Shown piece after piece: positions 15,793 through 60,102 of a DNA stretch of 64,000 nucleotides (position 1 is its first letter; each line of letters begins with the position of its first letter). This DNA is from Ruditapes philippinarum. Lineage: Eukaryota. Made by a program: the position numbers and the translations under genes. The stretch is from the NCBI RefSeq assembly GCF_026571515.1, contig NW_026855204.1, positions 248,001 to 312,000 on the forward strand, read 5' to 3'. Below the pieces are notes generated by a model that did no database searches, had not been told where the DNA came from, and was given only the letters and a program-made list of their open reading frames with translations.

Positions 15793-18700
15793 TTAAATAG
15801 TTCTTGAATTTGAATGCTCTTTCCACGGCCATCCAAGACCATTGTCACAGACAACTTTCACAAATATTTTTGATTCGTCTAGTGCTGGAACGCCAAATTC
15901 ATTTTGTATCCAGTGTGATTTTGAGACAGCTTTAGCATTATTTCCAAGTATCTGTGGTGCTCTGTTGTCCACACGCAGCGCACCTTGGCATGGCCTATAT
16001 GAGCCCGAAGAACTACTTTGACAGAACATTTTGCATATCCTCCCGCAAGAATCGTATGCAGAAAGTAGTACCTCAGATGGTTTCACATCGGGTGTCTTTA
16101 TAGCAATGTACATCATTGATGACGTTACTGAAACGTCATTTTTGATATGGACGATATCTTTAAATAGACCTTGGTAGTTCAGTCCATTTGACTCGACATA
16201 TACACTCAAAGGAAGGTCGTTATTATCGCACTTTGGATAAACCGCAGCCTTCGCTTTCTTCTGTTTTCTTTGCTGTCTTGTCTCTTTACTAACAAAAATG
16301 CTTAACGGAAGATAAGACCATAGATTTCTATTTGTTACCCCATTTATATTAAAGTTATTTACATATTGATCGTTGATATTTTCCCTTTGACATTTGACGT
16401 CAACCGCGTTTTCTATTTGCTGCATATATGTATTGACATGTTTATCATTGTGAATAAATAAATTATCTGTGTTCGGAGCATTCCTTCTTTTCCTTAATGG
16501 AGTCAGTTCATTTACATCAAATACCTCATCTGGTGGGGTATCAAATAATGACGCCGCTACACACTTTGGTCTGTCTTCAGATGTGTCACATCTGATATAA
16601 CGAGACCCACATGTCGGAGTTTCGTTTGAACAGGTAGGCGGTAGCTGATATGTGTACATCTCAGTTGTGAAAATATCACTTAGGGCATGTCTGTTTAGAA
16701 GATTACCAAAACCAGATGGATCGTCATATTCGTGTCCAGGCGGACCGGTGTCACTAAATGGATAATCTGTCGTTGGATCAATACCACGTCTCCTCTGAAT
16801 ACGACGGAAAAGTTCCCAGATAAGATCTATAAATGAATGGAGAAGAAGAAATATCGGGTCATAACCGGCGAGCGCTTGAGGTGCCATGTGGCCCCCAACC
16901 CATAGATGCGGTTCTCCGTGGTGATCTTCAATATTAGCTATAGGCTCTGCTTGTGGATGAGTTATCTCAGCTATATGACTTTTACTAAATGTATCACGGA
17001 TACTGGTCCAATTCATCATGGTACCGCCGTCACCAAAATTTCGCATTAAAGGTCCATACGGCGTTGCCCATCCAGCAAATGGTCCTGTTTTCACACGTCC
17101 GTTTCCATTTCCCATGAATTCTGGTGTCCATATCAGAGAGGCTCTTTGATCAACTAAATGTAAGTCTAGTGTTGAGTCCCAATACGGAATGGTCACAGAC
17201 GGAACTTTCTCTCTTAGCGCATTTTCTGCCCTGTTGCAAAGTAAATAACAATTCTGGTAACAGAAATCATTATATAATAGTTCTATGGAAATAGAAAGCA
17301 AATGAAGAATTGAACATATGAATATATGAATATATCAACAAATTAACTTTTGAATCTTTACATATTACAGCTGATCTATTTACATAGAAATATCTACATT
17401 AAATAAAACATTAAAAGTATAAAACAAGTAAAAAATTGCGCGGTATGTTTTTATTTCATTCATGTTTTAAAAATAAACTTACAATATAATGAATAATCTG
17501 TGCCAACCAAGAAAATTAGGACCGTCGTGAGCTCTTTCTCCTAACAGTTCGTGTAGTCGACCTAGTGCATCAAATCTGTTTGGTGGTATAGTCTGTAATA
17601 CAAAACATTGCTTTATGCAGCCCTTATATCGAAGTATTAACCTCTATGTAAAACAATGGATCACGTATTTATGAGAGTATGTCACAACTTTCATTTTTTC
17701 TCCAGTTTGCAATCATGATTTTGATTTATATACAAATTTTCACAAGGAATATATTGAGAATATACCTCGCACAATCATTTGATTAAAAGAAACAGTAGAA
17801 TACGAAAAAGAAATTCCTATAGAGTCTATGATTATTATAAACATTTTGCTAAATCATTAGAATAGTGCATACCCTGTCAGCTTTCAACATATTTATTGCT
17901 CTATGAAAAAGTCGTCTCTCTAAATCACTTAGTAAACGATATTCTCGGCGGATTCTCAGCTGTCTTACTGGAGGGCGGCGACGTACTGCCTGCCGTCGAG
18001 TACGACGTCTCTTTTCTGCTTCCCTGAAATATGTAAGGGAGTTGAAGAATGTTATAACAAGACAATTATAAATAAAAAACATTGGAACCCTTTAAGTCGG
18101 ACGTTTACAGGATGGTTCAGATGGGAACGAAGCATTGATATATCAAAACAGAGATAGAAATACTTAATGTGATGCACATTTTGTTGTAAAATTGACATTG
18201 GAAACTTTCACTTATCGTCTTCATTTTAACCTATGAAGATAATCATTGGTAGAAAACTAGATGGATAATCTTTCTCTCCTCCGTCGAAAGGTTTCTGCCA
18301 TTTTATACGGCATTACCAAACTCGATGTGTTTTTGGGCAAGAAGTAAGAAATATGATAAACAAGATCAACAAGGAAAGGCGGTGTTCAATAAGAAGACTA
18401 CATTGTATCTTTACCTGTAGCTTGTGTGTATCAGATCCGCAAACCATTTCATGGCAACTTTCGGCATCTGTTTCTCGCTTGCTCCTACCCTTGTCCAAAG
18501 CGATCCATGCACGCAATGCCAAAGTAACTTCTCTCCAATATGCACTGTCAAATTACCTACAGAGTAAATAAAAGAAGTGATTTTAGTCGATTGTTATTTT
18601 TGTTGAGTCAGAATATTTAAATATCGAAGAGTCGTATATGCAGATAATTGGGTTTTATCTTACAAATATTTGTCAGTAATAATATTAATTACTGCATTCT

Positions 18701-25820: not shown

Positions 25821-28800
25821 TTATTTCCACACATTCACATTTGAAGCATGCCACCAAACCTTTGAATTATTAGGACACATGCCTGGCACACACACATAAT
25901 CATCTGGGTCGAATATAGTATTATCGGGACAGCTCTGGATGTGGTGGGCACCATTTTGACAGGAAGTATACAATGCGCATGTGCCGATACATTTATATCT
26001 TTTGCCATTTACACATTGGTTACATCCTTTTGAAAGCATACATCCGTTTCCAATATGGCATGCTAAAAATGAAATATGAATAATTAATAATATCCTATTT
26101 TCCTGATAAGTAGTAATAATTATCTACTTAAATTAATTTAGTTAGAATCAAGTTAAAGAAAAAACTCTCTGATCCGTTCCTGGAACCAACCAGTACAAAG
26201 CAGCGAGTGATTTTTGCCAAACGGAAAATTGACTTGTCCAGTAATGTTATGTCTAAAATAATTTCTGAGAACAAAACAAAAGACTTGAGCATTGCAATTT
26301 ATATTCTTCTTTTAAATTTACCATTTAATAACAGTACAAATTGCAATACGAGACACGAGCATTGATATTCTTGTATATACTTTTAGGCTAAAAAGCGTCA
26401 GAGAATCTTTTTATAGCATCGCATTTAGACAGTAAATTGTTCTATCAATATATTAATGTTACCTGTTGGATTTACATTGACAGGTCCATTCGATACAATT
26501 GGTTGTTTCGATACCTCTGGCTCTTCGATTTCATCAAAAGCAGCAGCACCTGGCCCTCGAGCAGCTTGTTGGGGTTGCATACCAAATGGCCACGATTCTT
26601 TAAAGTTACAATGGAACTGAATATATATACTGTCATCTTGCATTGTTGGACATATATCATTTTTGCCAAATTGCCAAAGGTGTGTCACAGCATCACCATA
26701 ATTGGTGCCGTAAAGCTTTGGAAATGATGAGGTCACCCTAAATGCGCCCGAACACCTCTGGAATCCTTGTGCACCAGCAAGTTTACAGAAAGGTTGACAT
26801 ATTCTTCCGCAAGAATCATAGGCATTCAAGAATACCTGCGATGCTCCAAACTGGGGAGATTTGACAGCTACGTATGCAGTTGCAACAGATATTGCAAGTC
26901 TATGATCGACGACAGCGTATTCCTTGTATGTACCCATGTAGTTCATGCCCTGTGAGCTGATATAAACTTTCCCTGCTCCGCTTTCTTGAGCTTGGCAATG
27001 GGAATATGAAGCAGGCTTTCCTTTTGGCATAACATTTTGCATGGTCCTGAAAGCGGTTGGTGAGTATATATCTTCAGCCTCCACTTCTCCATTGACAATT
27101 GGATATGAATCGTAACTGTTAAAGGTCGGTGGTCTTTGATAAATGACTTTGACCGGTATGTAAACCCATTGCTTGATATCACTTCTACCGTTCATATTAA
27201 AAGTATTTTGATAGCCTTGTGCCATTGGTATTACAGGGCACATGTCTGCAGGCATTACAGGTGGTGATATATATGGAGCATCAGTCGAGTTCTGAACATT
27301 GCTTGGCATATTCTGGTTTGTTTGAGGTAACATTTGAAACTGAATGTTTGAATTGATGTTCAGATTCCCTTTCATGAATTGGCTACCTCTAGGATCTGGT
27401 AAATACTTGAATGTATTTAACTTCAGTTGGCGTTTAAAACGACGCTGTATGGAACGACGTTGTACTTGTGTAGGTTCACTTGGATCGTCTAATCCAGCGT
27501 TTTCATTTTCTTTAGTTAAAGCTTGTTGTCTTCGCATTTCCGCCAATAATCTTTGTTGCTGACTCACTCTCATCTGGTTTTGAATGGTAACCTGTGCTTG
27601 CTGTGCACGTGCAGCGTTCATCATGCTAAGTCTTGCCACGGCTTGCATTCGCTGTTCTTGTACAACTTGGTTCATTAGCTGTTGCCTGATTGCTGAAACA
27701 CGTGGGGCGGCAGTCCTGGATTAAATACCGTGTACTTTATCAACAACATGCCGTAAAAAATAAAACGATGGACATAAATAAAACTTAAAGAAACAGCTCC
27801 ATGTCAATTAAGAATTAACAAAGCCCATTAAAAGGTGTATTTTATTTAATGTCGGTGCACATTTCCCGTACTTAAAAGGTCATAACACGATTTAAATATG
27901 TCTTACAACGGTTTAAATGAAAGTTATGTCTACAAGGTCCATCAATAGATTATTATATGTATAGTTAAACCTGTAAAATGTCCATGTCATGGATAGCAAA
28001 ATCTTAATAAATATAATGTTTGGATGGCTTAAATTTGGTTTTAAACCTTTAAAACTTACACCGGAGTATTGTTATCTAAAATGGAAAAAAAACAAATATA
28101 AAGTAATAGTATACCAATCTAATGATACACATCTTGACTGAAAACCGGCCACGACACATCTCAGGTATGGCGACCCACAATCCGGAAAATTCAATGAACA
28201 TCCAGGTGACGGTTCATACTGGTATATCATACTTGTGAACCGGTCATTAAACCCATCAATATTTCGTAATCCTGCCAGTCCCATGGGATACATTGCTGTA
28301 TGCATTGAGTTGTTTACAAAAACTGGATAGTCTGAGGTGGGATCTATACCAAATCTTCGTTGATTCTGTCTAAATAGTTCAAATATGTAATCCACGTATG
28401 AATGATGAAGCCAAAATATAGGATCATGCGCTGCAGTTTCTAGCGAACCCATTTGACCGTCAACCCATAAATGCACTTGATTATGCAAGAATTCTAAACT
28501 TGAATTTACGGCAGCGTTCGGCTCGGTTATTTGTACGAGTCTTATGCTAGACACAATCCGTGCCATATCATTAGCATGAAAGAGCGAGCCAGCTTGACCT
28601 ATATTTCTTATGAGAGGCCCTGATAGTGTTCTCCAGCCGGCAAATGGTCCAGTGTTTACCATTCCGAATCCATTACCAAAGAAAGAGTCTGTAAACAATA
28701 TTGACTGTGTCGGGTTGATCAAAGCTGAATCTAAAGTAGAATCCCAGTAAGGTATAGTGACTGAAGGGATTTTTGTCCGTAGGGCATTCTCAAACCTAAA

Positions 28801-31800
28801 AACAATATATATTTGAATGTCAAGTATTGAAAGGTAATTTAAAATGGGTCATGGCCTAGATGCGAACTTTCCAAGTTACTTATAATTATTTCGAACTATA
28901 ATGTAAAGTTACGTATTATTAAAACTTTTTACAATACATGTTGTATATGTAAGTGTGTTAACAGAATAAATTGCAATAACTATCTGTTCATTAAGTCATA
29001 CAAACTTAAGTCAGTGAAGCAATACCACGTGACCTTAACGTCATTTTCGACATTATTTCCAAGACAAATATTGCTCGATTCGAAAAAGAAAATAGCCGTT
29101 AGTATCTTATTTCTGACATGCATCAGTCTACCGAGAAAAATATAAGCTTGCCACAGAATATTGGATCTCCTTCAGTATATGAGCCGTTTTATCAAACACT
29201 TTGTATTACCATGAAAGTTGTTTGTGTAAGACCGGACTTCAGTTTATACGAAGTGTTTGATAAAAGGGCTCATATACTGAAGGAAATCCAATGTTCTGTG
29301 GCAAGCTTATAATTTTCCGCGTAGACTGGTGCATATCCCAAAGAAATTGGAACAGAAATAAAATACTAACGGACATTTTCTTTTTCGAATCGAGCAATAT
29401 TTGTCATGGTCACATGGTATTGCTACACTGTTAGTATTCCTTCTGGTTTCAACATATTATAAACAAGAGCTGTGACAGGAGACAGCGAAGCTCGACTTAT
29501 TAAATACTGGACGCAGTAAGGAAGACAAAACTATGAAAGAAAAATCAATAATGATATAAATATATTTCTTCTTATGACAATAAGTTATAGTTGTTAACAT
29601 AAATTCAAATAAAGTTCAAAGGGGAATTATTCTGGAAAAAGTCACACTAGAGTTACGGACATTGTCACACAACTTGATAAGAAATATATATTTGAAGAAG
29701 ATGCCTTAAAAAGTTAAGAAGTCATAATATTTTTTAAAGAACATTCTAAGTTCATAGGTAGATATAAATCTAAAAAATTTGCTTCAATAGTTATTAACCT
29801 TGTCACCTAAGATCTGGTTGATGATAAGAAATGTGTAGGTAGATACCTTTAAAACTAAAGAAGTTATAGTGAAAAATAACATTTTTATAGTAAAAAATCT
29901 AAGTTAATGGGGGAGATAATTCTTGGATTATTGGTGCAAGAGTTATGAACCTTGTCACATAAGATGTGGTTGATGATAAGAAACAAACATTTGAAGTTTA
30001 AAGTTGATACCTTAAAAAATGAAAAAGTAATAGTAAAAAAAAATATAGTTTAAGGAAAATTTTAGTTCAAGGGGAGATAAATCTAAAAATATTGGTGCAA
30101 GAGTTATAAACCTTATCACATTAGATGAATTTGATGATAAAAAACAGATATTTGAAGTTGAAGTTGATACCTTAAGAAATGAAAAAGTTATAGTGAAAAA
30201 TATTTTACTGCACCAAAACTTTAATCTGAAATCTGGACTCGAACGCGGACGCCGACGGCTGGGCGAGTACGACAGCTCTCCATATACTTCGTATAGTCGA
30301 GCTAAAAATTAATTTATTAAAACCTTTTTTGAAACCATTTTAGCTCGTCTGTTCCGAAGAAAAAGTCGGGCTATTATGATCGAATGGGCATTATTCTGAA
30401 AGCAATATTTTTGGAGTAATGCCCCTTTTTACTTTAGAATTTTAAACAGACGAGCGTTTAACCTACATGCGGTGCTCTGTTATGAAATTAGCAGCCCCAT
30501 TAATTTTTGTTATATTTTCAAAGATAGAAAAGAAAACTAGGAAAAATCAATAATGACAAGACGTAAACAATATTTTAAATCTTAGACACTTACATTAGAA
30601 GATATACTCTATGGAAACCAAGGAAATTAGGACCACCGTGTGCTGAATGAGTCATCATTCCCTGGTGAATAGCAGAGAGGGCGTCGTACATAGAGGGAGC
30701 CACCGACTGAAAGACAAACAGAAGTCATCTTAGATCATTATTTCGTAGTTTAAAATAAAAAAACAAGTATTTGTTGTTACTGTTAAGAAATATTACACAA
30801 TATGGAATATCTCAGCAAATTTCTGTTGTGACAATTGAGATATAGTTGCTATCCCTCGGTTAATAAGTATGATCATACTGGCAAAAAATGCACACTTTTA
30901 CTAAAACACTGACTAGCAGCTTCACTCATTATCCACAAAATGAAATAACTCTTTGTATACGCATAAAATAAAGGTTAAAATATTGATATGAAAATTTGTT
31001 GCTTCTTTCATCGTACCGTATCAGCCTTGAGTAACTGTATAGCTGTATGAAAGTTTGCGCGTTCCATATCGGTAAGACGCCGGTATTCTTTTCTGATTCT
31101 GAGATTTGGGGAAACCGCTTGGCGTACATGTCTGCGAGATGGTGGCTTTGGGAGAAGACTTTGTACCCAATTATATGCCTGTAAATAACATGAGATTAAA
31201 ATATCATATCAGTTAAGTTTGAACAAATGTTGCTAGCATGTACAGGTCATCTATTAGTTTAATATGGTTATAAAGTTTCTTATATTGATAGCTTGGTGTG
31301 ACAATGAAATGGTAGTACATAATTTTTAGTTTAAACTTTATGTATTCAATAAATTGTACATAAAATGACATTTTACAAACATTGCACAACAATGTAATTC
31401 AGACTGGATTGGAAAATAAGTAAAACAATACTTATATCAATTCCTCTCCAGTAAAAGTACTTTTCAATAAGATACAAAAGATACAAAAGATACAATAAAG
31501 ATACAAAAATGTTGCGGTTAGAGGTAAGCTCTGAATATACAGACTAATTGATTGTTGAATTACTATGAGTGTGGATAAACTTGGTCTTTCCGTACGATCA
31601 TATTTCTTTACATGTTGATCTTTAGTATTAAACTTCGATAAATTCAATCATATCTTTCCTTTCTTCCTTTTTTCTAGCATTTCACCATAATTTAATGTTT
31701 TTAAGAACATTAAGTTCGAAACGGTAGGCAAATATCAACTGAAGTTAAACGTTTTATTTTCTATACCAAGTTTATTTACTCTTTTGCATTTTTAAAGCTA

Positions 31801-45400: not shown

Positions 45401-46666
45401 TTACTCCCACCAAAAACTAACTGAAAAACTGATGGAAATCGATTTCACAAAATGCCAGAACTTTGGTGGTATGTACAACATTTCTCCACTTTTCAAAACA
45501 CATTCCACATAACTTGCATCTCTGAACTTCGGAAATTTCTCAAAGTTTGGATTCTCGACATCTATTTGACTTGTATTTTTCAGTAAAGTTGTATCATGTG
45601 GGTATAAGTTATCTGTTTCAGACTGCGGATAAATTCGTATATATTTTTCTCCCATCACTTGAGCTAGAAAATTGTGCTTCGGGTCATAATGTACAGGTGA
45701 AACTGTCCCTTTAGGTCCAAACCAAGCGTTTATATCAACGTCCTCGCTGTTACCGAGGTAACAGTAATCCGGTGTAATAATATCATTCTGTAATTCAGGT
45801 ATCTGATTAAACAGCTGATGTTGTGCTAAATATCCTATATCAGTTTCTCTTGTCTTCATTTCGATGTATGTTTCAATAAATTCTCGAACAGTCATTAATT
45901 TCTGTGACCATGAATCGTCCGTGTATTTGGACCCTAATTCTATAGGAACTGTCCGACATCCTGCAATTTTCTTAATGTAATCTAAAGTCCATTTTCTGTT
46001 ATCAAGAGCTGGCCAACCTTCCATAACATCAGTAATGATCACTGGAGTTTCCGTCAAGTAAAAGTCTCGTCTAAATGTCTCTATTGACGGACACGAAATT
46101 CTCTTCATACACTTTTCATCAGACATTGATTCAACAAGATCATCCTTAACAAGTTTTTGACGTTTAACAGTCTCATTAATTTCATGTTCAGAGTCTGAAA
46201 CATGTTTCTTTTCCTCAGTCTTCTTATGATCACTGACACATTCTAAACTTTTCTGAAAGTCCCTATTAAGATGTGTGCATAACCTAGCAAGTATGTTATC
46301 TAAAAAGGGAGCTCCCATTAATAATCCCATGTCACAAGACTTCATGATATTGTCAAAATTAAATCTATCGTCATCATTTCTTAGGAGAACATATTCACTC
46401 AAAGCTTTTACAACTGAAACAAGTGTGTATGAATATCTCCAACTTATATTGACATCTTTCCAATGTCCTTGATTGAGTTGCTCCCATATAAAATCTAACA
46501 ATATTTTACATATGCTGATAGTTTCCTGGAACTTTTCCGATGAAAAATCACTGAGGGCAGATAATATTTTTGCATCTACTGCTGCACTTAACACTGTATT
46601 ATCAACCAATTCTTTGTACAGGGATGTGAAATCTAAAGCGTAGAAAGCTGCCAGGTCAGCGCACAT
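45401..46666 (-). CDS. KDM8: JmjC domain protein JMJD5/KDM8 (arginyl hydroxylase/peptidase)
   Basis: Uninterrupted ORF with WEQLNQGHWKDV, DMGLLMG, RTVPIELGSKY, GYLAQHQLF, INAWFGP, HxD (HYD)...H and the terminal SVSFWW typical of JMJD5. The start is placed at MCADL (46666) because a pyrimidine tract plus CAG acceptor lies at 46680-46705; the ORF track starts at 46684. Confidence 0.92.
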   Translation of the reverse strand: MCADLAAFYALDFTSLYKELVDNTVLSAAVDAKILSALSDFSSEKFQETISICKILLDFIWEQLNQGHWKDVNISWRYSYTLVSVVKALSEYVLLRNDDDRFNFDNIMKSCDMGLLMGAPFLDNILARLCTHLNRDFQKSLECVSDHKKTEEKKHVSDSEHEINETVKRQKLVKDDLVESMSDEKCMKRISCPSIETFRRDFYLTETPVIITDVMEGWPALDNRKWTLDYIKKIAGCRTVPIELGSKYTDDSWSQKLMTVREFIETYIEMKTRETDIGYLAQHQLFNQIPELQNDIITPDYCYLGNSEDVDINAWFGPKGTVSPVHYDPKHNFLAQVMGEKYIRIYPQSETDNLYPHDTTLLKNTSQIDVENPNFEKFPKFRDASYVECVLKSGEMLYIPPKFWHFVKSISISFSVSFWWE

Positions 46667-47225
46667 TTTGCGTTCTCTCTGCATGCTTTGAAATGGAAAA
46701 AAAGATTATCAGTGAGCACTTGTATTACTGAATAATGACGCTCGCAACAGTTTTCAGATAGACATTTAGACAGAATAAAATTTCTTTCATATATGTTATT
46801 TAAACCAAAGGTCGTTTTAGAATATGGCAACAGATTCATTTTAAGGGGAAAAAATGAAGTTGCCGATCTGGTTTTTTGAATAGTCTCAATATTTCGACTG
46901 CAAGACCGACCGATTTCATAATCTGATTTTTCATAGATGTCTGTCTTTACGAAGGGCGACCATCATCTATATAATTAAAAGCCCTAAAGCGCACAATTTG
47001 TTGGGCTAGTTTTTGAATAATCTGCCATTGGAACTGATGCCATTGAAATTAATTCGTAATTTACTTGTTCCAAGGGCAGATAATTCATTTTCATCCGGCC
47101 TAATTAATAATTATCACTGAGTGTACGTTTACAAAATTTAATGCTCCTAATTAAAATCACTCAGAATATCATCATCGGATATGATGTCAGAATATCAGTG
47201 GTTCGTTCATCACTTTAATCACAGG

Positions 47226-47351
47226 AACTTGAAATTCTATCAATATCAATGATAATATCCAAAATATACCCCCTATACAGTATGTGTTTATTTATACTGC
47301 ATAGGGGGTATATTTTGGATATTATCATTAATATTGATAGAATTTCAAGTT
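47226..47351. repeat. ~126-bp near-perfect palindrome between ~170-bp direct repeats (46881-47050, 47453-47620)
   Basis: AACTTGAAATTCTATCAATAT..ATATCCAAAATATACCCCCTAT and its reverse complement; flanking TAGTCTCAATATTTC.ACTGCAAGACCGACCGA occurs twice. Confidence 0.8.
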
Positions 47352-49924
47352 TTTGTGCTTTAACCATCAAAGCAATTATGATAAGCAAAGTTCATTCTTT
47401 AATCACAGCAAGTAGTAAAATCGCACAGAACAACAACCTTTCATATTAAGTTAGTCTCAATATTTCCACTGCAAGACCGACCGACTTTACAAACTGATAT
47501 TACACAGGCGAAGGGCAACCATCATCTATATAATAAAAAGCCCATTAAGCGCACAATTTGCTGGGCTACCTTTCAAATAAAAAAAATTGCAACATAACAT
47601 AATCGAACTGATTGTTATATGTACTAGTATGCAAAATTGTCGTACCTCATATTGTCGTCGACAGAAACAGTTTGACCGAGTACTTTTCTATATAGAACAG
47701 CTTGTCAGTTATTATACTAATTTAGCCAATGCTGAAGCATATTCATCCACAGTCCCTTACTCTTTTTAATTCCGATTAGAACTCAAAGCGGCTTTGATTT
47801 ATGTCATTTTGTTTAATATTAAAATCATTTCTGGAAACCGGTTTACATTGCTACAAATGGCGCACATGAATAAAAGGGAAGTAACTATTGTATAATAATG
47901 CATATCAAAGTTCATATTTTCTCACGCTGGTAGTTATCAATCTAACAAAAAGTAGCTCACCAAGATAATTATGTAGAATCATACAGTAAACACGTTTTAA
48001 CAATTTATAGTCTTAAAAGTCCCCAACAGCTGTTAGAATTATTTTCACATTTTTGACAATTAAAATTGCATTCTTGGTCCGAATTTTCTCTTCTTCAACA
48101 AAAAATATCAACAGAAAAAAAGTATAATATATAGAGTACAGATCTAGCTTAATTACTTTTTTTGCTTTTGTAAAATGTTTCTATGGCAAAACCACTGCAG
48201 AAATTACAAGCCGGTCAATTAGACCTGCAGTATGTCATTTTCAGACATAGGGGCCTATTATAATTGTCCGTTGTCTAAATGAGGGCAACAGAATAACGGA
48301 AAATTAATATATAAATTATATATTTCACCGTTTGCAATCGCAAAAATATCGGCTCTTGGATAAGAGGCCTCGTAAGTAGACCCAATCGCAACTACTCGGC
48401 CCTTTCCGCCAGTCTTCGGATAAGGACCTCGAACACAATAGTATGAATACACAGAACGGATGCGGTATTTCGGTCTAACCTACGCTAAGAAATTAAACAT
48501 GTAAACAAATGGTAATTTAATGCTGGGAGGTGTTGACAAGTTTATTTCCAATATATGTAGTTAAAGTCCACCTAAAATAAGTGAATTCATAGGTTAAAAA
48601 GAAAACAATACATTATTTATATATTTATTATTATGACGGTAGAAACCGAAAGTACAAAAAACCAACCTGTTGACATATAGTCGGATTTGTTTAAAATTGA
48701 ACATCAGTGGGCATATTTAAATTACAAATTGTTGTCAGACATATTTTCAAGCATAAGAGTACCGGAACAGACATTAGATGTCAAATATATACATTCGTTT
48801 TACAGTATCTCTGTTTCTGTTTACATCTGAAACCACGTGGTAGAACTACTTTCAATCCATATTGTTTCCGAGGTTATTATAGATAATAGCCAAGGCAGTT
48901 CCGAATGCCAAGGCAGTTCCGGATGAAGTAGACCATGTATACAACAACGCAATCCGCCCGGGTAATAAGGCAGAGTTCGCTCGCTCTCCCAACAACTTCT
49001 GCAAACTTTATCTTGATTTAGAAGGAAAATTGCTTTTATCAATTTTAAAATATCACTGTTAATCTTTCTTCCACTGTATAAAAGTGTATCATATTCTGTC
49101 ACTTTTGCCACAAATGAATGTGGCACATGGAGGTCGCTATTTTACCATGTGACTGAAATAAGTTTCAATATGTCGCATTGTTATGTCAAATGTCTATTGC
49201 GAATCGTAATAGCCGAGGAGATCAGATTGTGGGATATTGCCGACAGGTCTAAATCAAATAACACAATGATCTATATCAACTCGTAGTAAGATTATTAGGA
49301 CTAGAGTCCGATGAAATAGTTTATCGTTACTTCACTTGTCAGCATACATTCATATAAAAAGTTATTGTAATTATATTCTTACAATGCAAGCTACAATTTA
49401 TCTAGTACAAATTATCACAGATAGATCTATTTGTATAGAGTCAATAATGCATGATTTAGTTTAATCATATTTTATTGTTAGGTTTTTTCTTTACGAAAAG
49501 CAGATACAAAGTCACAAGCAAACATAAGACAAAACATTAACGAATAAATTTACAGATTTTACATGGATTCTGTAGTTGTACATAAAAAAACATAAGTTTT
49601 GGACAACAATTAAACAACATAAGAGCGTTGGCCATTCCCACTTATTCCATGTGTGCGTCTTTTTACCACTTTTAGTATAGCTTTATCTTTGGCAACATTA
49701 TAATACAATGTATATAATTATACAGATCTAGCCAATCGTTCTACGACAAGATCACTACAGAAATTATATGTTACTTTTATGTTATATACATTGTACATTT
49801 CTAAATGACGGAAAACAGAACACGTGTGTCACAATTTATCATTCATGTAAAAAAATATATTTAAAGCAAAATTTTGATGTCATCTGAAGAATTTAATGTC
49901 TGTTGAATGTACATGTACCACCCA

Positions 49925-52900
49925 CTACCACTCATCTGGGTCACGCTCTGATGCCCAGCCTCTCCGAACATTGCTTCTAGTTGGCATCACTTGTCGGGAT
50001 CGCTTAGTAAACGGGCTTCCTTGTCTTGCCATTTCTTCATTAGAGACACTCCATACTTTCTGATTGGTCGTGTTGGTAACGGGGTTCTCCGTTGGTAGAT
50101 CATGGGCATTTTTACTCTTCTGGTTCGGGTGTATGGCTGTTACCACCGTCGAATCACTTGGCTGCGCTCTTTTTTGTTGTTTTTTCATGGATCTCGTGAG
50201 TTCTTCAAATTTCATGCGCTGGTAAATACAGCCAAAGATTGCAATAATTGCCAGTATAAGAGCCAGGGAGGCGCCGGCTATAAGACCGTATCTATACCAA
50301 TCTTCATTGTCGTCGTCAGCTGATAAAATAATTAAAAAAGTATTACAATGCAAGTTACAAAAACAAGGTCTAGCATGCAATATATCGTTTTGCATATGTA
50401 TTATTCTTGAGAAATAAACCCAACAAAATAACACAAAAATAATTTATATGTGACATTTGACCAAGAATCGCGGCACGAGTATCACAAATAAAAAGGGGAA
50501 AATGCTATCCTTTTAAGTACATTTATAAATAACAATATCTGAGCTTCAAGAATATCTAACTTTTAACTTTAAAAACGTCTTGTTAAAGAAAGATCACTCG
50601 CATATAACAATGTATGGGGTTAAAGGTTAGTCAAGGAACAGTTAACTGTTTCTAACTGACTAAGATTATATTATTGTTAATGATGGATAGTTAAAGATGT
50701 ACTTATGCAGCAGGTTACCTAGAAATAAATGGTACTTTAAAGGCTCATTAATCCTTCGGAATGGTATTTTTCTTATTTTTCAATTATTTGTTGTTTTTTT
50801 ATATTTTCGGTATCTGTTACAGTTTTCAAAAAGTACCACCTATTTTTTGCTTCATTTGCTGTTTGGCATTTGGTATAATCATAGTGATTAAAGTATATGG
50901 AAGTCAAAATACTAAAATATTTACATTTTTCTACCTTCACCGTAGGGAACGTGTTACAGTATCGCGTTTTTCGGTTACAGTATAGAATTTTCAAGATGGA
51001 GGATTATTTGTTGGGAGGACAGGTAGGTGATTTTTATTCCGGTCCATACTACAAGAAGTTTAGTTTCTAAAAGATGTTTTTGTGCTTTGCTTGTAAGGAA
51101 CAGAATCCGGTATCTAGTCATATATTTCTTCAGACCCTGCGCCGCAGATTTATCGCTATATTGTCTCATAAATATGCAGATTTGACAGTTTGAATAATTT
51201 GAATCGAGAGACCAACGCATTTTTCTGCAATTTCGACATTATTTATGCATGCCTAGAAAAAGTAAATCTTCAAAACGTTAGTCCTTTATGTTAGGAAACG
51301 TTTATAAAAGTAAATGACCAGTTGAACCTATTTTCCTGTTCGTTAAATGCGTTTGAAAAAATAAACAATGTTACAGTATAGAGCGAGGTAATTTGTGCAG
51401 GGTTACAGCAATAGACCTAGCGATTTGTATCCGATTTTGTTACAGTTTATACCCAGATTTCGGTTACAGTTTAGACTTCAATATTTTCTATATATACTAG
51501 GTAAAATGTATGAATGTTACATAGACTTTTTAAATATATGTGAGCTTATTGGCCCGATGGCTATATTTTGGCCCGATGGCTATTTATTGGCCCGATGGCT
51601 ATTCGTTCCGTCTGACGTACACAAGTGTGTGCAATCTCAACCGCTCAGTAACTACTTGACTAAATTTGATGAAAATTTACATGACTTTCTACCCAATTAA
51701 GTTGGTTGCAATCGGGGATACGAAAACCCAAAACATAGATTTTGAAAAAAGGCCAATGTTTAAAGGATCTTCTCCATCTCGAACCAAAAAGCATTCAAAT
51801 CAAATCATGATGATCGCGTCATTTCGAATGCTTCTTTGTTGAAGTTACGACTTATTTTGTCATTATTAAATCAAAAGTCGTTTTTTTTATTTCAGACATC
51901 CTGTTATAGCAATTTGTATGTTTCTGAAAAGAAAATAATATTGAAATTTTATAGAGTATAAAATTAAGGTCAGACAATTTCAATATCTTCTCTAGTGAGT
52001 CTGATGGAAGTACATAATAGTGACAGAGTCGGGATAAGGCCGTCGACTTCAAAATCATCTTTCATTTACCTGCTGTAGTTGAAATCCAATCATGACTTTG
52101 GATTCTTTGTATGTGAGGAATCTATCAAGCTAATTTTACGGAAGGTCGGTGGTTCTAGTCAGGTGCCCGCTCGTGTGTGAAATGTTTCACAAAGGGTATC
52201 TGGGGTCTTTCTTTACACTAAAGCAGGAATGTTTTCACATGACCTAAGTGTCGTCGAAACTTAAAATCCATGAAAGCAAAACGTAACAAAATAGAGTTAA
52301 ACAGAATCCCTAAAGAATTCCAACGCAACAAATTTGAAAATGTTTATAAACCCTTTTAAATACTTACAAAATACATTATGGTAGATGGAAATTCCAACTT
52401 GAAAAAATTAAGGTTGCAGTATTGCGCACTTAAATACTGTTTAATCATTCTTAGGGTATTGCCTCTTGTTAATTGTGTCTTTTGACAGTTTATCTATGGT
52501 ATGCAGGCTTCATAACCTCCGATCCCCTCTCAAAATTTCATTTTGTTTAGTTTCACTCATTGTATTCTCGTTTAGGGCACACGCAATGTTTTACCTGGGG
52601 GTAATATGCCACTTTTCATAGAATGCCAATAACGTGTCACATTAAAGGTTCCGTCATATGAACACATCCACAGGTGTTAAAAATCTTAAGTGTACCAGTT
52701 CATGTTTAATGTGAATTCTGCTGAAGCCGGTGCTAGGAGGCGTGGACGGTAGCTTGCAGTTACCACTACCGTCGATGAACACGTTTAATCAAACTGAGCC
52801 TGCAACATTTTCATGTTTTCCGTGTTGGATTTCTGTTAAGGATTCTTTTTTCTCTATTTTATTACTAATAGGCATTATTATAATGTGTAATGAAATCAAG

Positions 52901-55900
52901 CAATAATCTTTCTTCTCTCAATACATGTCGATAAAAGTTACCGTTGTTTACGTGAAAACAGTCCTTACTTAGGACATTACTTATTCTGCAAAAAGTCTCA
53001 ATCTGAAACTTAAATAAGAAAAATAGGAAACTATAACTTTTCTGCTGAAGAAAAAAAAGTAATTCAACCTTTCAAGAATGTATTAACATTGTTTATTTTT
53101 TCAAACGCATTTTACCAACAGGAATACAGGTTCAACTGGTCATTTACTTTTATAAACGTTTCCTAACATAATGGACTAACGTTTTGTAGATTTACTTTAT
53201 CTAGGCATGCTTAAATAATGTCGGAATGGGAGAAAAATGCGTTGGTCTCTCGATTCAAATTTTTAAACCGTCAAATCTGCACATTTATGAGACAATATAG
53301 AGATAAATCTGCGGTGCAGGGTCTGAAGAAATATACGACTAGATACCGGATTCTGTTCCTTAAAAGCAAAGCACAAAAACATCTTTTAGAAACTAAACTA
53401 CTAGTAGTATGGACCGGAATAAAAATCACCTACCTCCCTTCCCAACACATAATCCTCCATCTTGAAAATTCTATACTGTAACCGAAAAACGCGATACTGT
53501 AACACGTTCCCTACGGTGACCTTTATAACACATTAACTCTGCTCTGCTTAACATCCAATATATTCTACATCCAATATTAAAGCATTATTAAATATATGTT
53601 TGACATTTCTAAAAGATCCATGACAGCTCCAGTTTCATATATTACTAATAGAACAGAAATATAAGTGGTTGATATATACAGATAAAGATTGATATGATGG
53701 AGACGAAATTGATATTTTACTTATTGGCGGAAAAAATCCAAACAAAAACGTTTCTAGACTTCCTACAAAGTTAAAAGAGTATCTAAGCACTTTACATGTA
53801 TATATACTTACAAGTTGTTGTCTGAAATCATATGATTATATTACATATCAATCTGATATGTCTAAACTTAATTATAATAACAAAGGGAGAGAATCATCAA
53901 GTTTGTAGGTGCATTGAAAGTATATAACAATAATAAGTAATAACCGTTTTATTCTAAACCTAACAAGATATCAACTTTTCTTTGCTCTTAATTACTGGCG
54001 TTACTACATGTAAGGGTAACTGTATATACATTTGTGTTGTGTATTATTACACACTGTATTACTAATATAAAATATGTTTTACTTTATGATGATTTAAAAT
54101 ATGCGGCACTGCCATACCAATGTATTCTATGATTCCGATATGTGATGCAACTTTGTAATTTTGCATACACGTACATAATCTTGATTTATTGATTTATTTA
54201 TTATTAATTAATTAATTAATTAATTAATTAATTAATTAATTAATTTATTTATTTATTTATTTATTTATTCCTGTTACATTATGTAATCATAAAAGAATAT
54301 ATATACCGATGTGCATGTTAATGACAGCAAAGCCCTCGAGAGATCAAATCCTGCAAGATTTGCTGGAGAACTGCAATTATCCGTGGTTAAACCTGGAAAT
54401 GAATTTTGTGAATTATTTGTATACTCTGACCCTTAAATTAGCTGCTAAAGTATATTTTTTATATAGAAATACGCCTTTGTATAAGTTTTGTCCATTTATC
54501 GCTCGGACATAAGAAAATTATATACAGAGATAAAATGTTTCTATTTCAAAGCATCGTAATTTTCGAGTTGTTGGTCCTTTACACTTTGAGAGTGCCACAT
54601 ACTGTCAAAACGATAACTGACTAATTTGTGTATGTCTTGTTTGAAATACAGGGGTTCATGACATCACCAGTGTAAACATGTACTTTCAAATATGGGAATC
54701 ACTCGACAATCAAAATGTAAACATTTACCATATGTTGTATATGTATTTGCAATAACTATTTCTCAATATTATGGTGTATAATGAAATAGTAATAAATTAG
54801 AATGTTCGGGGAATTTAAAAAACAACAACACAAAATTACACGGCATTTCTATACCAAAAGCAAATTCTGTTCAGGCTTTAAAAATTTAAACTTGATTAAT
54901 AAAATGTATGAAATGGATGCTGATATTGAAAAAGAAATGTCACCTGAACTTGTGAGATATGCACCAAGCCATTGCAGGTCGCAGTCGCATACCCAATTAT
55001 TTTCACCAATATCCAGGCTTGTCAGACTTAGCAAAGGATAGAACAGGTTGCCTGGCAACGTTGTCAGGCTACTATCGAGCAGTTGTAGACTTGTGAGCTT
55101 GGTCAAACCGTCAAATAACCCCGACGGTATGCTTGTAATAATAAAACTACATTTATTACTTCATCGGGTATAGAAATGAAAGTTTATGCACACAAATACT
55201 AAATGAAAAAAAAACTTACGTTTACCTCCCCTGTATGAATTAGTATCACTATGCTTTACAGTTCAAACGTTAGCAGTAAAATCTTTAATTCTGCTTTGCC
55301 CAAGATAATAACAAACCTATAGCAAATATTAGTATAATTTGTACTCGAAAATAACTTTTATAAAAACAGTATTATATTGTACGAATGAACATATTTTGCA
55401 TAAACAAAAATACAAATACCTATTTAAAACTGTTCGAGACATATCAATAGACGTGAGTTCTGTCAATCCGTCAAGCAGTCCTGACGGTATACCAGATGAC
55501 GGGAAACCTGCATAGAAATAGAGCGTCGTCAGACTCGTCATACCGGATAACGCCGAACCGGAAATTGTCGAAATATTTCCCGCCATAACTGTGAGTAGAG
55601 TAAGACCTGTCAATGTGGAAAAGGCTCCGGATTGAATCTCCATGTTGTTGCAATCTGTATTAACAAGAAATTTTATTACAATCATAAACATGATAAATAC
55701 ACAGTATTACCGGTGCCGTTGATCATAGACTGCTGCAGAGGTGACAGAAATACATGTATAAAATTTACTTATTACTACTGTAAAGTTACAAACTTGATTG
55801 GTATGCTATCATAAAGCAAAGTAAGGACAATAATTGCAATAGACTTACTGTCCATTGAATGGAGATATTATACGGCATTTTGGACTCGTTTCTCCATTTC

Positions 55901-58900
55901 ATAAAATATTTTGAGCAGGTTAAAATGACCGACTCGGAAAATCTATATTCTCGTTGTTATAATCTGAAGCTCATAGAATTATTTTACAAATTTTAAATTA
56001 TAATTTTACTCCTCAAAAATAGGATGTTCTTATTAAAAGTTACAAAAGTCTAATTTAGCTTTCCTGACTTATTTCTTAAAAAGTGACAACGTTCTCAATC
56101 GGCTTTTGTAACCCCGATATAAAAAGCAACATACTCGTTATTAGGCTTTAAAACTACACGTCCTGATGCCAATTTAACATGTTCTAAAAAGAATATAACT
56201 CCTACGTAGGAATTAAAAACTACTAATTAGGCTTTTGTATCTCTTACGTATATCCTAATATGTATGAGTTACGAAGTCCTATGTGGGACTTGTAAACTCC
56301 AAATTAGGCTTTTCATCTCCTACGTAGGAGTTTTAATTTTTGTTTAAAGAACATGTTAAAATGGCACCAAGATGCTTCCGTAGTCAACAGGGCGTTTCCG
56401 TAAAAAAAATCATTAAACATTATTTTACCCTGAGATTTTCGACCGTGCGACCACATACACGCATCGAGGACTTATTGGAGGAAAAGTGACCGAGAGACCA
56501 CATACACGCATCACAGGATTCCCCTTCTCATACGAGAAAGGGACAAAGAGTTGTCCGCCCATTTATTGAAGGGCAGACTTTAATAATATGCCATTTCCTT
56601 ATTGCTATTGATAAGGTGGTTAATTTCACAGATGATTTTTGAATTGGTATATATATACGGCTATAATAATGCAAACCAATCGGGTTTATGTTTTCGTCAT
56701 TTTAAGTCGGCTATGATTTTTTAAGCTCTTATACAATTTTTAGGGAAAATCTTGAGTTTACAATCATTTCTACTTTTTATTTTATGTATATTAAAGAATT
56801 ATTTCATTTCTGCAAAACATGAACGTTTCAAAAATGTTTTATATGCATTAAACCATGGGAAGTATATTTCACACTTCGTTTGCAAATATTAACCTGGTGG
56901 CATTTTTGCCAAATTCAAATGACTTGGTATACATAAAAGCAGCCGACAATAATAAGGCTGTACAGGTTTAAAATTTTGCCAGCGTAATCCTTAACCTGAG
57001 GATTTGTGACATGGACTTTTCAAGCTTTTATTTTTGAAATTATCAATCTGGAAAATTCAAGATTAAAAAATTAAAAAGTTAGCTGGCCAACATTACAGAG
57101 CCTGACCAGACTGCACCGATGTTCAGATTGGCTTTGCTCTATACTGGGTAATTCATTTCGGTTCCAGCAAGATAAAGGTGCAGCGTTGTTGGCAGTTGTC
57201 ATATTTACCCATTCAGTCAATCACTTTTGATTAAACGCGTCATTGCTTCATGGTTACATGTTAGGGGCAAGTCGTAGTTTCCTTGAGCAAGAAATTTTAT
57301 TCTCATTGCTAAGTACCCCCAAAGTAGTACATATTCGTAGTACGCAAAGAAAAGAGAAGTTAATATCAGAGTGATCTTGATTTTGTGTCAGAATGTTAGC
57401 CACTTTTAAAGCGTTTTTGTCATCATTTGCAGCCACTAAAATACATTTCTACCCAAAGCATTTTCACTTCAACCGGTCTAGTTTGGACATCTTTAGTCAA
57501 GAAAATACACACTGGGATGATATTTTGCATGCGGGACCCTTAGTGGTGATTTTTGTGTGGGGGGGGGGCATTCAGATTTACCCTTGTCCGTCCGTCCTTC
57601 CGTCCGTCCGTTCCCATTTTGTGTCGCGCGTAGCTCAAAAAGTAATTGACCTAGAGTGAAACCTTACAGGAATGTTGATTAGCATGTGAAGTTGTGAACC
57701 TGGGTATTTTCATGTGATATATTTAGTATTTTTAGAGTTATTGCCCTTGACTTAGTAAACATTTCCAATTTTCAACTTGTGTCGCACGTAACTAAATAAA
57801 TATTTGACCAGAGTCATGAAACCTTACAAGAATGTTGCTCCGCATGTGTAGTTGTGCACCTGGGTATTTTCGTGTGGATATTTTTTTTGTATTTTTAGAG
57901 TTATTGCCCTTGACTTAGTAACAATTTCCAATTTTCAACTTGTGTCGCACTTATCTAAAAAGTATTTGACCTAGAGTCATGAAACCTTACAGGAATGTTG
58001 CTCAGTATGTGTAGTTGTGCACCTGGGTATTTTCGTGTGGATATTTTAGTATTTTAGAGTTATTGCCCTTGACTTAGTAAAAATTTACAATATTTAACTT
58101 GTGTTGTACGTACGTAACTCAAAAAGTTTATGACCTGTAGGCCTGAAAGTTTACAAGAATGTTGGTCTGCATGTTTAAGCACCTTGGGGTTTTCTTGTTG
58201 ATTTATTCAGTATTTGTAGTATTTGCCCTATACTTAATAAAAGATTTTTAGTTTTCAACTTGGGCACATGTAGCCAAAAAAAAAATTGACCTAGAGACAT
58301 AAGATTGACAAATAGGTGGAGTGTGGGGGCACCCGTGTCATATGGACACATTTCTAGTTATGTGTATAACACGAAATCCAGTCATTTATTTAATACTTGA
58401 GATATTCTAAACAAACCACAATCATTTTCACGGATTTTTCCGAGGCTGTCATTTATTATGAAATAGGGAAACGGGTCTAAACTTACCTAATAGTTTCTCC
58501 AGTCAAGGACAGTAAGTTTATAGCAATGAAATAGACCTTATTTGCATAATGTAGCAACCAAGTATATAACCTACCTGTAGTAATCAGTAGATTTTAGATT
58601 GCAGTCATCACTGTCTCCGGTAATACGGTTTGAAGACATTTTAAACAGCATATTACACTACTGAAAACGGTTATTTCTACATTTATTTAATAAAGTATGC
58701 ATGTCGTTTCTTTTGTATAATTATTTGGCATTCTGTTTGCTAAAAAGACTTCAGCGAACAGGTCTAATAGTACTGCTAGACCTGTTCGGTCAACGTCAAA
58801 AAAGTGACATATAAAGTGAAGGAAGCCAGAACTAGCATTCTTTATGTTTCGAAATTAATCGGATATTTGGACACACAATAGTCATTTTAAAAATACCGCC

Positions 58901-60102
58901 GTTTTTGTAATATTTTACTGTTTACTCTTTGACTTCTTATTGCGTTTAGGTAAATGTAATAGCTAATTAAAAGATGTAATAGCTATATACAATGTTTTTG
59001 TGATAAATGAGTGTTTCATAATAAATCAAGGCATTTGATTGTTGAATAGACCAAAAGTAAAAACAAAAAAGATTATTTCACTATATAGAAAAACATACAT
59101 ATATAAAGGTAAAGATCTCACCAGTTATAAGCATACTGTCCACCCATGAAAGATTTCCTGACAAACTATCACTCAATAACGTCATCTGATTATTACTGCC
59201 GAACCCGCAGTCGAGGCTGAGCTGCGAAGTTCCGGTGTAACCACCACTGTTTGTTAGGCCGTTTAGTGCCTGAATTGAACAGTATTAATGTAAATGAGCC
59301 GCGTCATGACAAAACCAACATAATGCGTTTGCGACCAGCATGGATCCAGACCAGCCTGCGCATCCGCGCAGTCTGATCAGGATCCATGCTGTTCGCTATT
59401 AGTTTCTCTACTTGTAATAGGCATGGATCCTGATCAGACTGCGCGGATGCGCAGGCTGGTCTGGATCCATGCTGGTCGCAAACCAATTATGCTGGTTTTG
59501 TCGTGACGCGGCTCAAATGATGATAGGATTCCTGTTTGTGTTTTAAAATTATTTTTACGGACATGGCTAAAAATTAATGAAATANNNNNNNNNNNNNNNN
59601 NNNNNNNNNNNNNNNNNNNNNNNNNNNNNNNNNNNNNNNNNNNNNNNNNNNNNNNNNNNNNNNNNNNNNNNNNNNNNNNNNNNNNNNNNNNNNNNNNNNN
59701 NNNNNNNNNNNNNNNNNNNNNNNNNNNNNNNNNNNNNNNNNNNNNNNNNNNNNNNNNNNNNNNNNNNNNNNNNNNNNNNNNNNNNNNNNNNNNNTTCATT
59801 GCATTGTCATTTGTCAATCTCAACTTAAGTAAAAAATATAGTTCAGTTTTATTCAACATTTAATTATGATTAATTATGATTAATAAATATAAATACAAAC
59901 GCAAACGCAAATCATTTAATGAAACAGTAAGGAGTAAAAAAGGTCGTCACTTACATTGCTCGGGATTGTTCCATCAACCGAGCTGACAATAAGATTTCCT
60001 GGAGATGTTGAGAACTGGCTGTCCAATAACGGTGGACTCCACGTGCTAAAGCTGCACGTGGCGTCATAGCTTGTCAAACTACAGCCAGCCGGTGCTGACA
60101 TC
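49925..60102 (-). CDS. Leucine-rich-repeat single-pass transmembrane protein (N-terminus/signal peptide exon not resolved)
   Basis: Exons (minus): 60102-59955 (APAGC..C cap), 59269-59122, 55654-55420, 55146-54944 (LRRs; NNWVCDCDL LRRCT), 54392-54307 (CSSPANL..LTC), 53821-53812 (10-nt microexon), 50319-49925 (TM GLIAGASLALILAIIAIFGCIY plus a tail of about 100 aa with no recognisable TIR). Phases are consistent throughout. Confidence 0.75.
50938..53518. mobile_element. Non-autonomous DNA transposon/foldback with ~435-bp TIRs, CAC...GTG ends and 5-bp TSD ACCTT (Transib/RAG-like signature)
   Basis: 50938-51373 is a close reverse complement of 53083-53518; ACCTT at 50933-50937 and 53519-53523; repeated GTTACAG subterminal motifs; no transposase ORF inside. 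Confidence 0.85.
52030..52270 (+). mobile_element. Degenerate third copy of the SINE, nested in the foldback element
   Basis: TGTGAGGAATCTATCAAGCT..TACGGAAGGTCGGTGGTTCTAGTCAGGTGCCCGCTCGTG matches the central block. Confidence 0.75.
54183..54269 (+). repeat. Compound (ATTA)n/(TTTA)n microsatellite
   Basis: Directly visible. Confidence 0.9.
56154..56383. mobile_element. MITE with inverted ends and internal CTCCTACGTAGG repeats
   Basis: TGCCAATTTAACATGTTC versus GAACATGTTAAAATGGCA; ends in CCGTA like the 60761 element. Confidence 0.5.
57550..58359 (+). mobile_element. Helentron-associated (HINE/pearl/DINE-1-like) element with internal ~160-bp tandem core repeats
   Basis: (GTCC)n microsatellite at ~57587-57610, about 4 core repeats (TTATTGCCCTTGACTTAGTA at 57739, 57901, 58060), 3' hairpin GTGTC..GACAC and terminal CTAGTT. 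Confidence 0.8.
59296..59514. mobile_element. Palindromic MITE with GAG...CTC ends and 4-bp TSD AAAT (Sola-like)
   Basis: GAGCCGCGTCATGACAAAACC... and ...GGTTTTGTCGTGACGCGGCTC form ~90-bp arms; AAAT at 59292-59295 and 59515-59518. Confidence 0.8.
59585..59794. other. Assembly gap (210 N)
   Basis: Run of N inside an intron of the LRR gene. Confidence 0.99.

Follow-up and report, generated by a model that had tools for sequence, protein, structure and literature searches.

A gene-less transposon with RAG-like ends in Ruditapes philippinarum, very probably derived from a P-like transposon with a nested exonuclease

Introduction

Ends that begin with CAC, combined with a 5-bp target-site duplication, serve as a badge of Transib and RAG elements. 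An element of 2581 bp that carries both features, and no transposase of its own, lies at positions 50938-53518 of the window, the term used here for the whole analysed stretch of 64,000 nucleotides from Ruditapes philippinarum (contig NW_026855204.1, positions 248,001 to 312,000). This raises the question of which kind of enzyme moves such an element. An earlier note on this DNA had proposed it as a candidate non-autonomous Transib/RAG-like transposon. The analysis described here leads to a different answer, in that the element, with high confidence, derives from a 10-kb transposon with two genes, both lost by internal deletion, and is likely moved in trans by a predicted P-like transposase with a nested lambda-type exonuclease. 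The RAG-like ends and the five-base scar are therefore not likely to point to the antibody-gene recombinase family.

The element and its family in the genome

The outer structure of the element is given by four features:

50933..50937, no strand: left target-site duplication, ACCTT (sequence and copy comparison)
50938..51476, plus strand: left terminal inverted repeat, ~539 bp, first bases CACCGTAGGG (self-alignment and copy comparison)
53084..53518, minus strand: right terminal inverted repeat, 171 bp shorter in the window copy (self-alignment and copy comparison)
53519..53523, no strand: right target-site duplication, ACCTT (sequence and copy comparison)

The inverted arms of the window copy align across 436 bp with 94.3% identity, and the inner portion of the right arm was taken by the 171-bp deletion, at the gap after 53083; typical family copies are ~2.7 kb long, with arms of ~535-540 bp. 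Six GT(T/A)ACAG sites, two outer and four inner, are found in the left arm. No overlapping stop-free frame is longer than 102 codons, and a comparison of the element with Rfam gave no match. The earlier note had described near-identical terminal inverted repeats of ~435 bp, an exact ACCTT duplication, repeated GTTACAG motifs and the lack of a transposase, all of which are confirmed.

The searched genome comprises 1.4 Gb and contains hundreds of dispersed copies. A left-end search returned 1136 candidates, the best 40 of which were scored, and the family-copy set consists of 38 examined stretches, 36 of them with both ends. Tabulation of duplication lengths over genome copies, a check proposed in the earlier note, gave an exact 5-bp duplication at CAC/GTG-type ends in 34 of the 36 paired copies. 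In a set chosen by terminal pattern, independently of the flanks, 8 of 11 pairs have a 5-bp duplication and 3 have none. The terminal pattern itself matches 730 times genome-wide (358+372) against 0 for a backwards control, and a second terminal pattern search yielded the identical list and nothing further. The base just outside CAC is T at 18, A at 9 and C at 3 of the 30 ends of the pattern-chosen set. The 5-bp duplications and the variation of this base remove the alternative that the earlier note had kept as a caveat, namely TCAC ends with a 3-bp CCT duplication.

The mean identity of 26 full-length copies is 94.9%, a value biased upward by their choice on similarity, and one copy, L031, matches the window copy at 98.9% identity and occupies a site of its own, with a different duplication. 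Overall, the window element is one of many copies in a young family of non-autonomous DNA transposons that end in CAC and duplicate 5 bp of their target, and the earlier suggestion of a relatively young family stands. The duplications are AT-rich, with 22% GC versus 37% in the flanks (34 sites). The target shows a weak palindromic A-n-n-n-T preference in a set selected partly by the flank of the query, and the T adjacent to CAC prevails at the 30 unselected ends too. Inspection by eye of the long frames printed for 20 family copies that are long or unpaired revealed no transposase; the extra length of these copies consists of nested LINE (long interspersed nuclear element) or tyrosine-recombinase elements or of unclassified insertions. 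Copies L063, L132-L133 and L131 are broken by what, from their motifs, appear to be tyrosine-recombinase-like retrotransposons and a LINE-like element.

A full-length relative and its colinearity with the window copy

A search of the genome for the YqaJ exonuclease family gave 113 matches, and 20 loci were extended, with long frames favoured. One of these 20, on G000:C10957, bears the family arm at 85.8% identity. The stretch G000:C10957:78877-89162 is a 10,286-bp element with 544-bp arms that are 98.9% alike and a 5-bp duplication, TAAAA. Its first 29 nt are identical to those of the window element, and six candidate binding sites of the GTTACAG type are common to both. Inside, it contains a stop-free transposase frame of 1458 codons with two further C-terminal exons and, convergent with it, a five-finger C2H2 zinc-finger frame. 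C10957 is apparently an intact, spliced candidate autonomous element. The earlier note had predicted a cognate transposase elsewhere in the genome, and C10957, which shares the ends and the 5-bp duplication, agrees with that prediction.

The relationship extends well beyond the ends. Positions 1-859, 880-988, 983-1331, 1920-2149 and 2147-2581 of the window element map in order onto C10957 with 70-86% identity, and the layout is colinear with C10957 in four of four other family copies tested as well. The order in the window is left arm and first intron, transposase acceptor with 28 nt, zinc-finger acceptor with intron, and right arm. Both genes have been deleted from the window copy, so that two splice acceptors lie 28 bases apart. 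The interior can accordingly be divided as follows:

50996..51022, plus strand: candidate first exon in the arm, from ATG to a GTAGGT donor, 27 nt (26 nt in C10957) (predicted)
51477..51895, plus strand: remnant of the first intron of the parent transposase gene, ending at the acceptor TTTCAG (alignment to C10957)
51896..51925, plus strand: 28-nt stub of the transposase main exon and deletion junction, with TCT common to both sides (alignment to C10957)
51924..53083, minus strand: acceptor and first-intron remnant of the convergent C2H2 zinc-finger gene of the parent (alignment to C10957)
52094..52290, no strand: interspersed repeat, presumably SINE-like (short interspersed nuclear element), mostly in the part common with the zinc-finger intron of the parent (self and genome comparison)
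52277..52867, no strand: ~590-bp interspersed repeat with degenerate inverted ends and no counterpart in C10957 (genome comparison)

The deletion at the junction removed ~7.6 kb together with both genes. The SINE label, also used in the earlier note, is a tentative one. The ~590-bp repeat was inserted in the founder of the family. In one copy (L081, 6713-8439), the interior repeat is present as three head-to-tail units of 630 bp. The earlier note had reported an interior holding a SINE and other repeats and had considered captured host DNA possible. The repeats are real, but a capture of host DNA is not supported: the interior derives from the introns of the parent, with the repeats as passengers in them rather than host gene DNA, save for the one ~590-bp interspersed repeat.

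The left arm of the window copy is ~85% identical to the arms of C10957, and family arms are ~93% alike among themselves and 86.5% alike to C10957. Older copies with the same junction are ~78% alike to both the family and C10957, indicating that the deletion is old. In addition, C6095 is a broken relative with the same arm type that also contains transposase and zinc-finger pieces, and C9950, 3070 bp long, derives from C10957 and has a 5-bp duplication of its own. Another family of deletion derivatives of the lineage was found on G000:C6713, C5003 and C13271 (L274-L276), with the first ~280 codons joined to the last exon.

The candidate transposase

Residues 270-1458 of the partner protein, P0001, were modelled with a pLDDT (predicted local distance difference test) of 84.1. 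The top Foldseek match of this model is the P transposase structure 6p5a (E 1.4e-5), and the first RAG match has an E value of 0.3. VIA comparisons gave Z 30.5 and a root-mean-square deviation (rmsd) of 2.9 over 325 aligned residues for P transposase, covering P residues 193-569 including the insertion domain, Z 11.7 (rmsd 4.6, 327 aligned) for RAG1 and Z 9.3 (rmsd 6.4, 299 aligned) for Hermes. The partner protein is thus predicted to fold like Drosophila P transposase, with a split RNase H domain and a P-type insertion domain. Its inserted domain resembles lambda-type exonucleases (Z 14-15, rmsd ~3, 172-187 aligned), and the model places this putative exonuclease, together with a coiled coil, after the first catalytic aspartate.

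The predicted catalytic triad is D336/D872/E1417, with roles assigned from motif and model. In an alignment of 44 rows (the query and 43 of 51 homologues), D872 is invariant, and D336 is conserved in 86%, E1417 in 91%, and D1247 and H1250, which form a DxxH motif, in 95%. The exonuclease residues D623, E639 and K641, which lie between the first and second aspartates, are likewise invariant. By register, the residue three positions before the last glutamate would be a leucine, versus the GTP-contacting D528 of P transposase. The 51 homologues, found at E <=1e-20, include proteins from Mercenaria, Solemya, Mytilus, Pinctada, Batillaria and Owenia. Clustered at 50% identity, and with fragments counted, matches scoring <=1e-30 number 428 clusters; the ESM Atlas gave a single YqaJ cluster that carries neither a name nor taxa. 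A sequence search of the PDB with P0001 returned nothing useful, and a search with the alignment profile recovered only an exonuclease (E 0.0038).

The lineage in the genome, controls and splicing

Related transposases are found at 16 loci, comprising 12 large elements, one short derivative (C9950) and three loci without an end pair in the fetched DNA. The 12 large elements are 8.6-14.3 kb long and have inverted repeats with CA ends (10 CAC, 1 CAG and 1 CAA). A 5-bp duplication is present in 11 of them (nine called by script and two read from the flanks), the remaining one having a 4-bp match, and convergent C2H2 frames occur in 10 of the 12. As a control, 10 loci were inspected in which the P-type RNase H domain is uninterrupted; two of them gave end pairs with a duplication, in both cases 8 bp. 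These two elements, L259 1002-9704 (8.7 kb) and L267 283-9890 (9.6 kb), have CAC ends and arms of 650-690 bp. Long-armed P elements of both duplication lengths therefore coexist in this genome. A search with the P-type RNase H family gave 45 matches, and no family arm is present in the 30 loci examined.

Contigs that are probably RNA, from four sequencing runs, show the last two introns of the transposase spliced out at GT..AG boundaries in three and two of the four runs, respectively. In C10957, each arm carries a 26-nt exon from ATG to donor that is in phase with the acceptors of both genes, and this exon is predicted to supply the start codon ahead of a conserved N-terminal finger. Our hypothesis is that the first exon is carried in the arms.

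Transib and RAG relatives

The proposal that the element is a non-autonomous Transib/RAG-like transposon moved by a RAG1-type enzyme draws on the CAC termini and the 5-bp duplication, on RAG1-like frames on seven contigs of this genome, and on the distant structural match of the partner protein to RAG1. A RAG1-family search gave 12 matches on these seven contigs, and no family end is present in the 19 stretches fetched around all of them. The best RAG1-like frame, a 544-codon open stretch at G000:C11460:28679-30058 (L068), has an E value of 2.6e-70. In a profile comparison with a RAG1-like frame, the partner protein reached E 0.023 with a probability of 2%, which is not significant.

The ends also differ in detail. 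In the cited passages, Transib has an end like a recombination signal sequence with AA at nonamer positions 5-6 and prefers GC-rich targets (PMC1131882), and protostome RAGL elements have the terminal inverted repeat consensus CACTWMCAAAC, with AAA at positions 8-10 (PMC7204232). At the nonamer positions, the element reads A,T for the 12-spacer and C,G for the 23-spacer, without the AA of Transib; positions 8-10 are GGG rather than AAA; and its duplications are AT-rich. It shares with Transib only the CAC termini and the 5-bp duplication; the nonamer AA, the GC-rich target and a RAG1-core or Transib partner are all missing, and from the RAGL features both the terminal consensus and a kelch-PHD RAG2L partner are absent, the convergent gene here being C2H2. 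Furthermore, the window copy follows the layout of a P-like element even in its splice acceptors. The earlier note had held that an autonomous partner encoding a transposase of another superfamily would refute its assignment, and C10957 encodes a protein of predicted P-like fold, far closer to P transposase than to RAG1, with neither a RAG1 nor a hAT match in a Pfam scan. We regard the Transib/RAG proposal as largely refuted and its being correct as highly improbable.

Alternative explanations

Derivation from a two-gene transposon with a P-like transposase must also be set against several results that weigh against it. Sequence alone does not place the partner protein: YqaJ is the sole Pfam match of P0001; the P-type RNase H family PF21787 is above cut-off in two of six scanned homologues, in its second half only, and not in P0001; and an hhalign comparison with the P-type proteins of this genome gave E 0.24, although the motifs are in register. 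No THAP match was found in the partner frame or in the scanned homologues; the uninterrupted P-type frames that were scanned also lack a THAP match and may lack upstream exons. The 5-bp duplication of the lineage differs from the 7-8 bp of the P superfamily. A search of public runs listed no match that is recorded as RNA; the four runs used for the splice check are only guessed to be RNA, and the predicted arm-exon joint was seen in none of them. One contig (depth 4) instead joins the predicted acceptor to a donor that lies 575 nt from the end and just within the inner edge of the arm; the homologue of this donor in the window copy is at 51501. Of the 12 large elements, seven have a donor-like site within the first 400 nt of each arm, two have one in a single arm and three have none in either, and the phases of the arm exon do not always fit. 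Finally, no autonomous relative with arms more than ~86% identical was found by searches that score only the best candidates; the direct parent is thus not in hand and we infer cross-mobilisation.

The last point leaves room for a closer sister transposase, missing from the assembly or extinct, as the driver of the recent spread of an element that nevertheless came from the C10957 lineage. The identity of the arms, higher within the family than to C10957 (86.5%), and the age of the deletion, which the older same-junction copies reveal, are consistent with this possibility, which we consider real if somewhat doubtful. Against it are the shared terminal 29 nt and six candidate binding sites and the state of C10957 itself: its main frame is free of stops, its two arms are nearly identical, and spliced contigs of it occur in public runs. 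Such a sister would alter only which copy supplies the enzyme. It is unlikely, in our estimation, that the lineage is a separate superfamily within the P/hAT/MuDR/Kolobok group rather than part of the P branch. The 5-bp duplication, the lack of THAP, the nested exonuclease, the second gene and the non-significant sequence-profile match to P would fit such a position, but the structural match spans P residues 193-569 with the insertion domain and is far above those to RAG1 and Hermes, and the P-type RNase H family scores above its cut-off in homologues; the distinction is also partly a matter of rank. A non-autonomous hAT5 element, a group that makes 5-bp duplications (PMC12730594, in the cited part) and which would share the preference of hAT elements for AT-rich targets (PMC1131882, likewise), has a smaller chance of being correct than even the Transib/RAG proposal: the partner protein has no hAT Pfam match, no search of the genome with a hAT family having been made, and the weak agreement with Hermes contrasts with that with P transposase. 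Derivation from a C10957-like transposon with a P-like enzyme thus remains the explanation that we prefer.

A possible mechanism

The element would most likely be moved by cut-and-paste in trans, into AT-rich and weakly palindromic targets that are cut with a 5-bp stagger. A transposase of the C10957 type or of a sister would recognise the terminal bases and the six GTTACAG sites, and these sites might be bound by the C2H2 protein or by the N-terminal finger of the transposase, replacing the THAP domain. The length of the arms could be explained if each holds the promoter and first exon of one inward-facing gene, a proposal for and against which we see about equal grounds. Lambda exonuclease has a 5'-3' polarity. 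The nested exonuclease might resect 5' ends to leave long 3' overhangs like those of P, or ready the donor break for repair, which we suggest somewhat more tentatively. Gap repair of donor breaks would then give rise to internal deletions like that of the window copy. P transposase itself leaves 17-nt staggered ends and needs GTP, according to the passages cited (PMC7776569).

The insertion site and its surroundings

The host is a gene for a leucine-rich repeat (LRR) and transmembrane protein:

49928..60101, minus strand: host LRR/transmembrane gene; homologue automatically named SLIT and NTRK-like protein 2 (homology)

A 402-residue LRR/transmembrane homologue, P0191, maps to minus-strand exons at 60101-59952, 59269-59123, 55676-55422, 55139-54942, 54393-54307 and ~50323-49928. 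The element occupies part of the last intron (54307 to ~50323), and the earlier description of an LRR receptor intron therefore holds by homology. The insertion target is another very high-copy repeat, present at 50894-50937 and again from 53524. In each run, 50894-50937 is matched by dozens of contigs that continue like the right flank after one ACCTT; being copies of the flanking repeat with a single ACCTT, they serve as a paralogous empty site. With respect to an empty allele at the site itself, runs X3, X5 and X13 do not cover the unique flank and are uninformative. In X10, a single contig matches the flank over 659 bp and diverges at 50937; its 10 differing letters are too short as a bridge, and it gives only a hint of an empty allele. 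This single insertion in an intron of the LRR gene is otherwise ordinary.

Elsewhere in the window, two long minus-strand frames (15793-17334 and 26425-28848) contain what appear to be tyrosinase-like copper-site motifs, and an uninterrupted 434-codon minus-strand frame (45401-46705) presumably resembles a JmjC-domain protein. Short palindromic repeats occur three times (29059-29409, 47214-47363 and 59295-59515), and a tandem array with a unit of ~160 bp lies at 57619-58300.

Significance and comparison with known systems

In the literature searched, with Repbase outside the search, no description of this lineage was found; supplements (PMC9587614, PMC10294476) may list such families, and an entry in a database may possibly exist already. 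The main text of a bivalve survey does not mention YqaJ or an exonuclease. What is new here is the direct link between a gene-less long-armed family and a P-like exonuclease transposase, the contrast of 5-bp and 8-bp duplications in one genome, and the spliced contigs. A broader proposal, which we advance tentatively although its chances are not much below even, is that of an undescribed, still transcribed P-type lineage or superfamily in molluscs and annelids. It would have its own 5'-3' exonuclease shaping transposon or donor ends, a 5-bp stagger, a separate C2H2 protein for end recognition and both genes started from one arm-borne first exon, and it would have reached the CAC/5-bp and convergent two-gene layout independently of RAG.

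If so, gene-less elements called Transib-like in molluscs and annelids may often have been misfiled. Because the ends and colinear introns tie the combination of CAC and 5 bp to a P-like enzyme, this combination alone is unfit for calling RAG relatives in molluscs. The lineage also offers tests of the P mechanism, namely the control of duplication length (5 vs 8 bp) and the exonuclease as a possible stand-in for the 17-nt staggered cut, for which the window family provides natural mini-elements as a substrate.

The comparisons that follow draw on parts of the cited sources. Transib and RAGL share the CAC ends and the 5-bp duplication, and RAGL also has two convergent genes (PMC1131882, PMC7204232), whereas here the transposase is a different one, the targets are AT-rich and C2H2 takes the place of kelch-PHD in the second gene. 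The CMC group (EnSpm/Chapaev/Mirage) has 2-4-bp duplications (PMC4482050), unlike the present family, which has CAC ends but 5 bp. KolobokE and ISL2EU also combine a DDE transposase with a lambda-type (YqaJ) exonuclease (PMC9587614, PMC4482050), but KolobokE has a TTAA duplication, RR ends and the exonuclease downstream of DDE (PMC9587614), and ISL2EU has an AT duplication and YqaJ as a separate gene (PMC4482050); here the duplication is a variable 5 bp, the ends are CAC and the nuclease is nested inside the predicted catalytic domain.

The closest resemblances are to the P superfamily. Galileo, a foldback-like member, has long arms, a P-type transposase and many copies that consist of two arms around a spacer, and it prefers palindromic targets; it differs in its 7-bp (rarely 8-bp) duplications with the consensus GTANTAC and in its single transposase gene, and the passages cited mention neither an exonuclease nor a zinc-finger gene (PMC4168063). 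The P element and THAP9 (PDB 6p5a, 6pe2; PMC7776569, PMC10983969) share the predicted split RNase H domain with a helical insertion domain and the DDE triad with DxxH. Also in common are CA..TG ends, repeated candidate binding sites in the interior and non-autonomous copies with internal deletions. The P element and THAP9 differ in having an 8-bp duplication and THAP, where the present lineage has 5 bp and a C2H2-like N-terminal finger. The arms of the P element are 13-31 bp long, compared with ~540 bp here, and the protein of this lineage has a coiled coil and a YqaJ insert predicted after the first aspartate, a length of ~1500 residues and a second, convergent C2H2 gene beside it. Because the lineage has neither THAP nor a 7-8-bp duplication, we file it as P-like rather than as a canonical member of the P superfamily.

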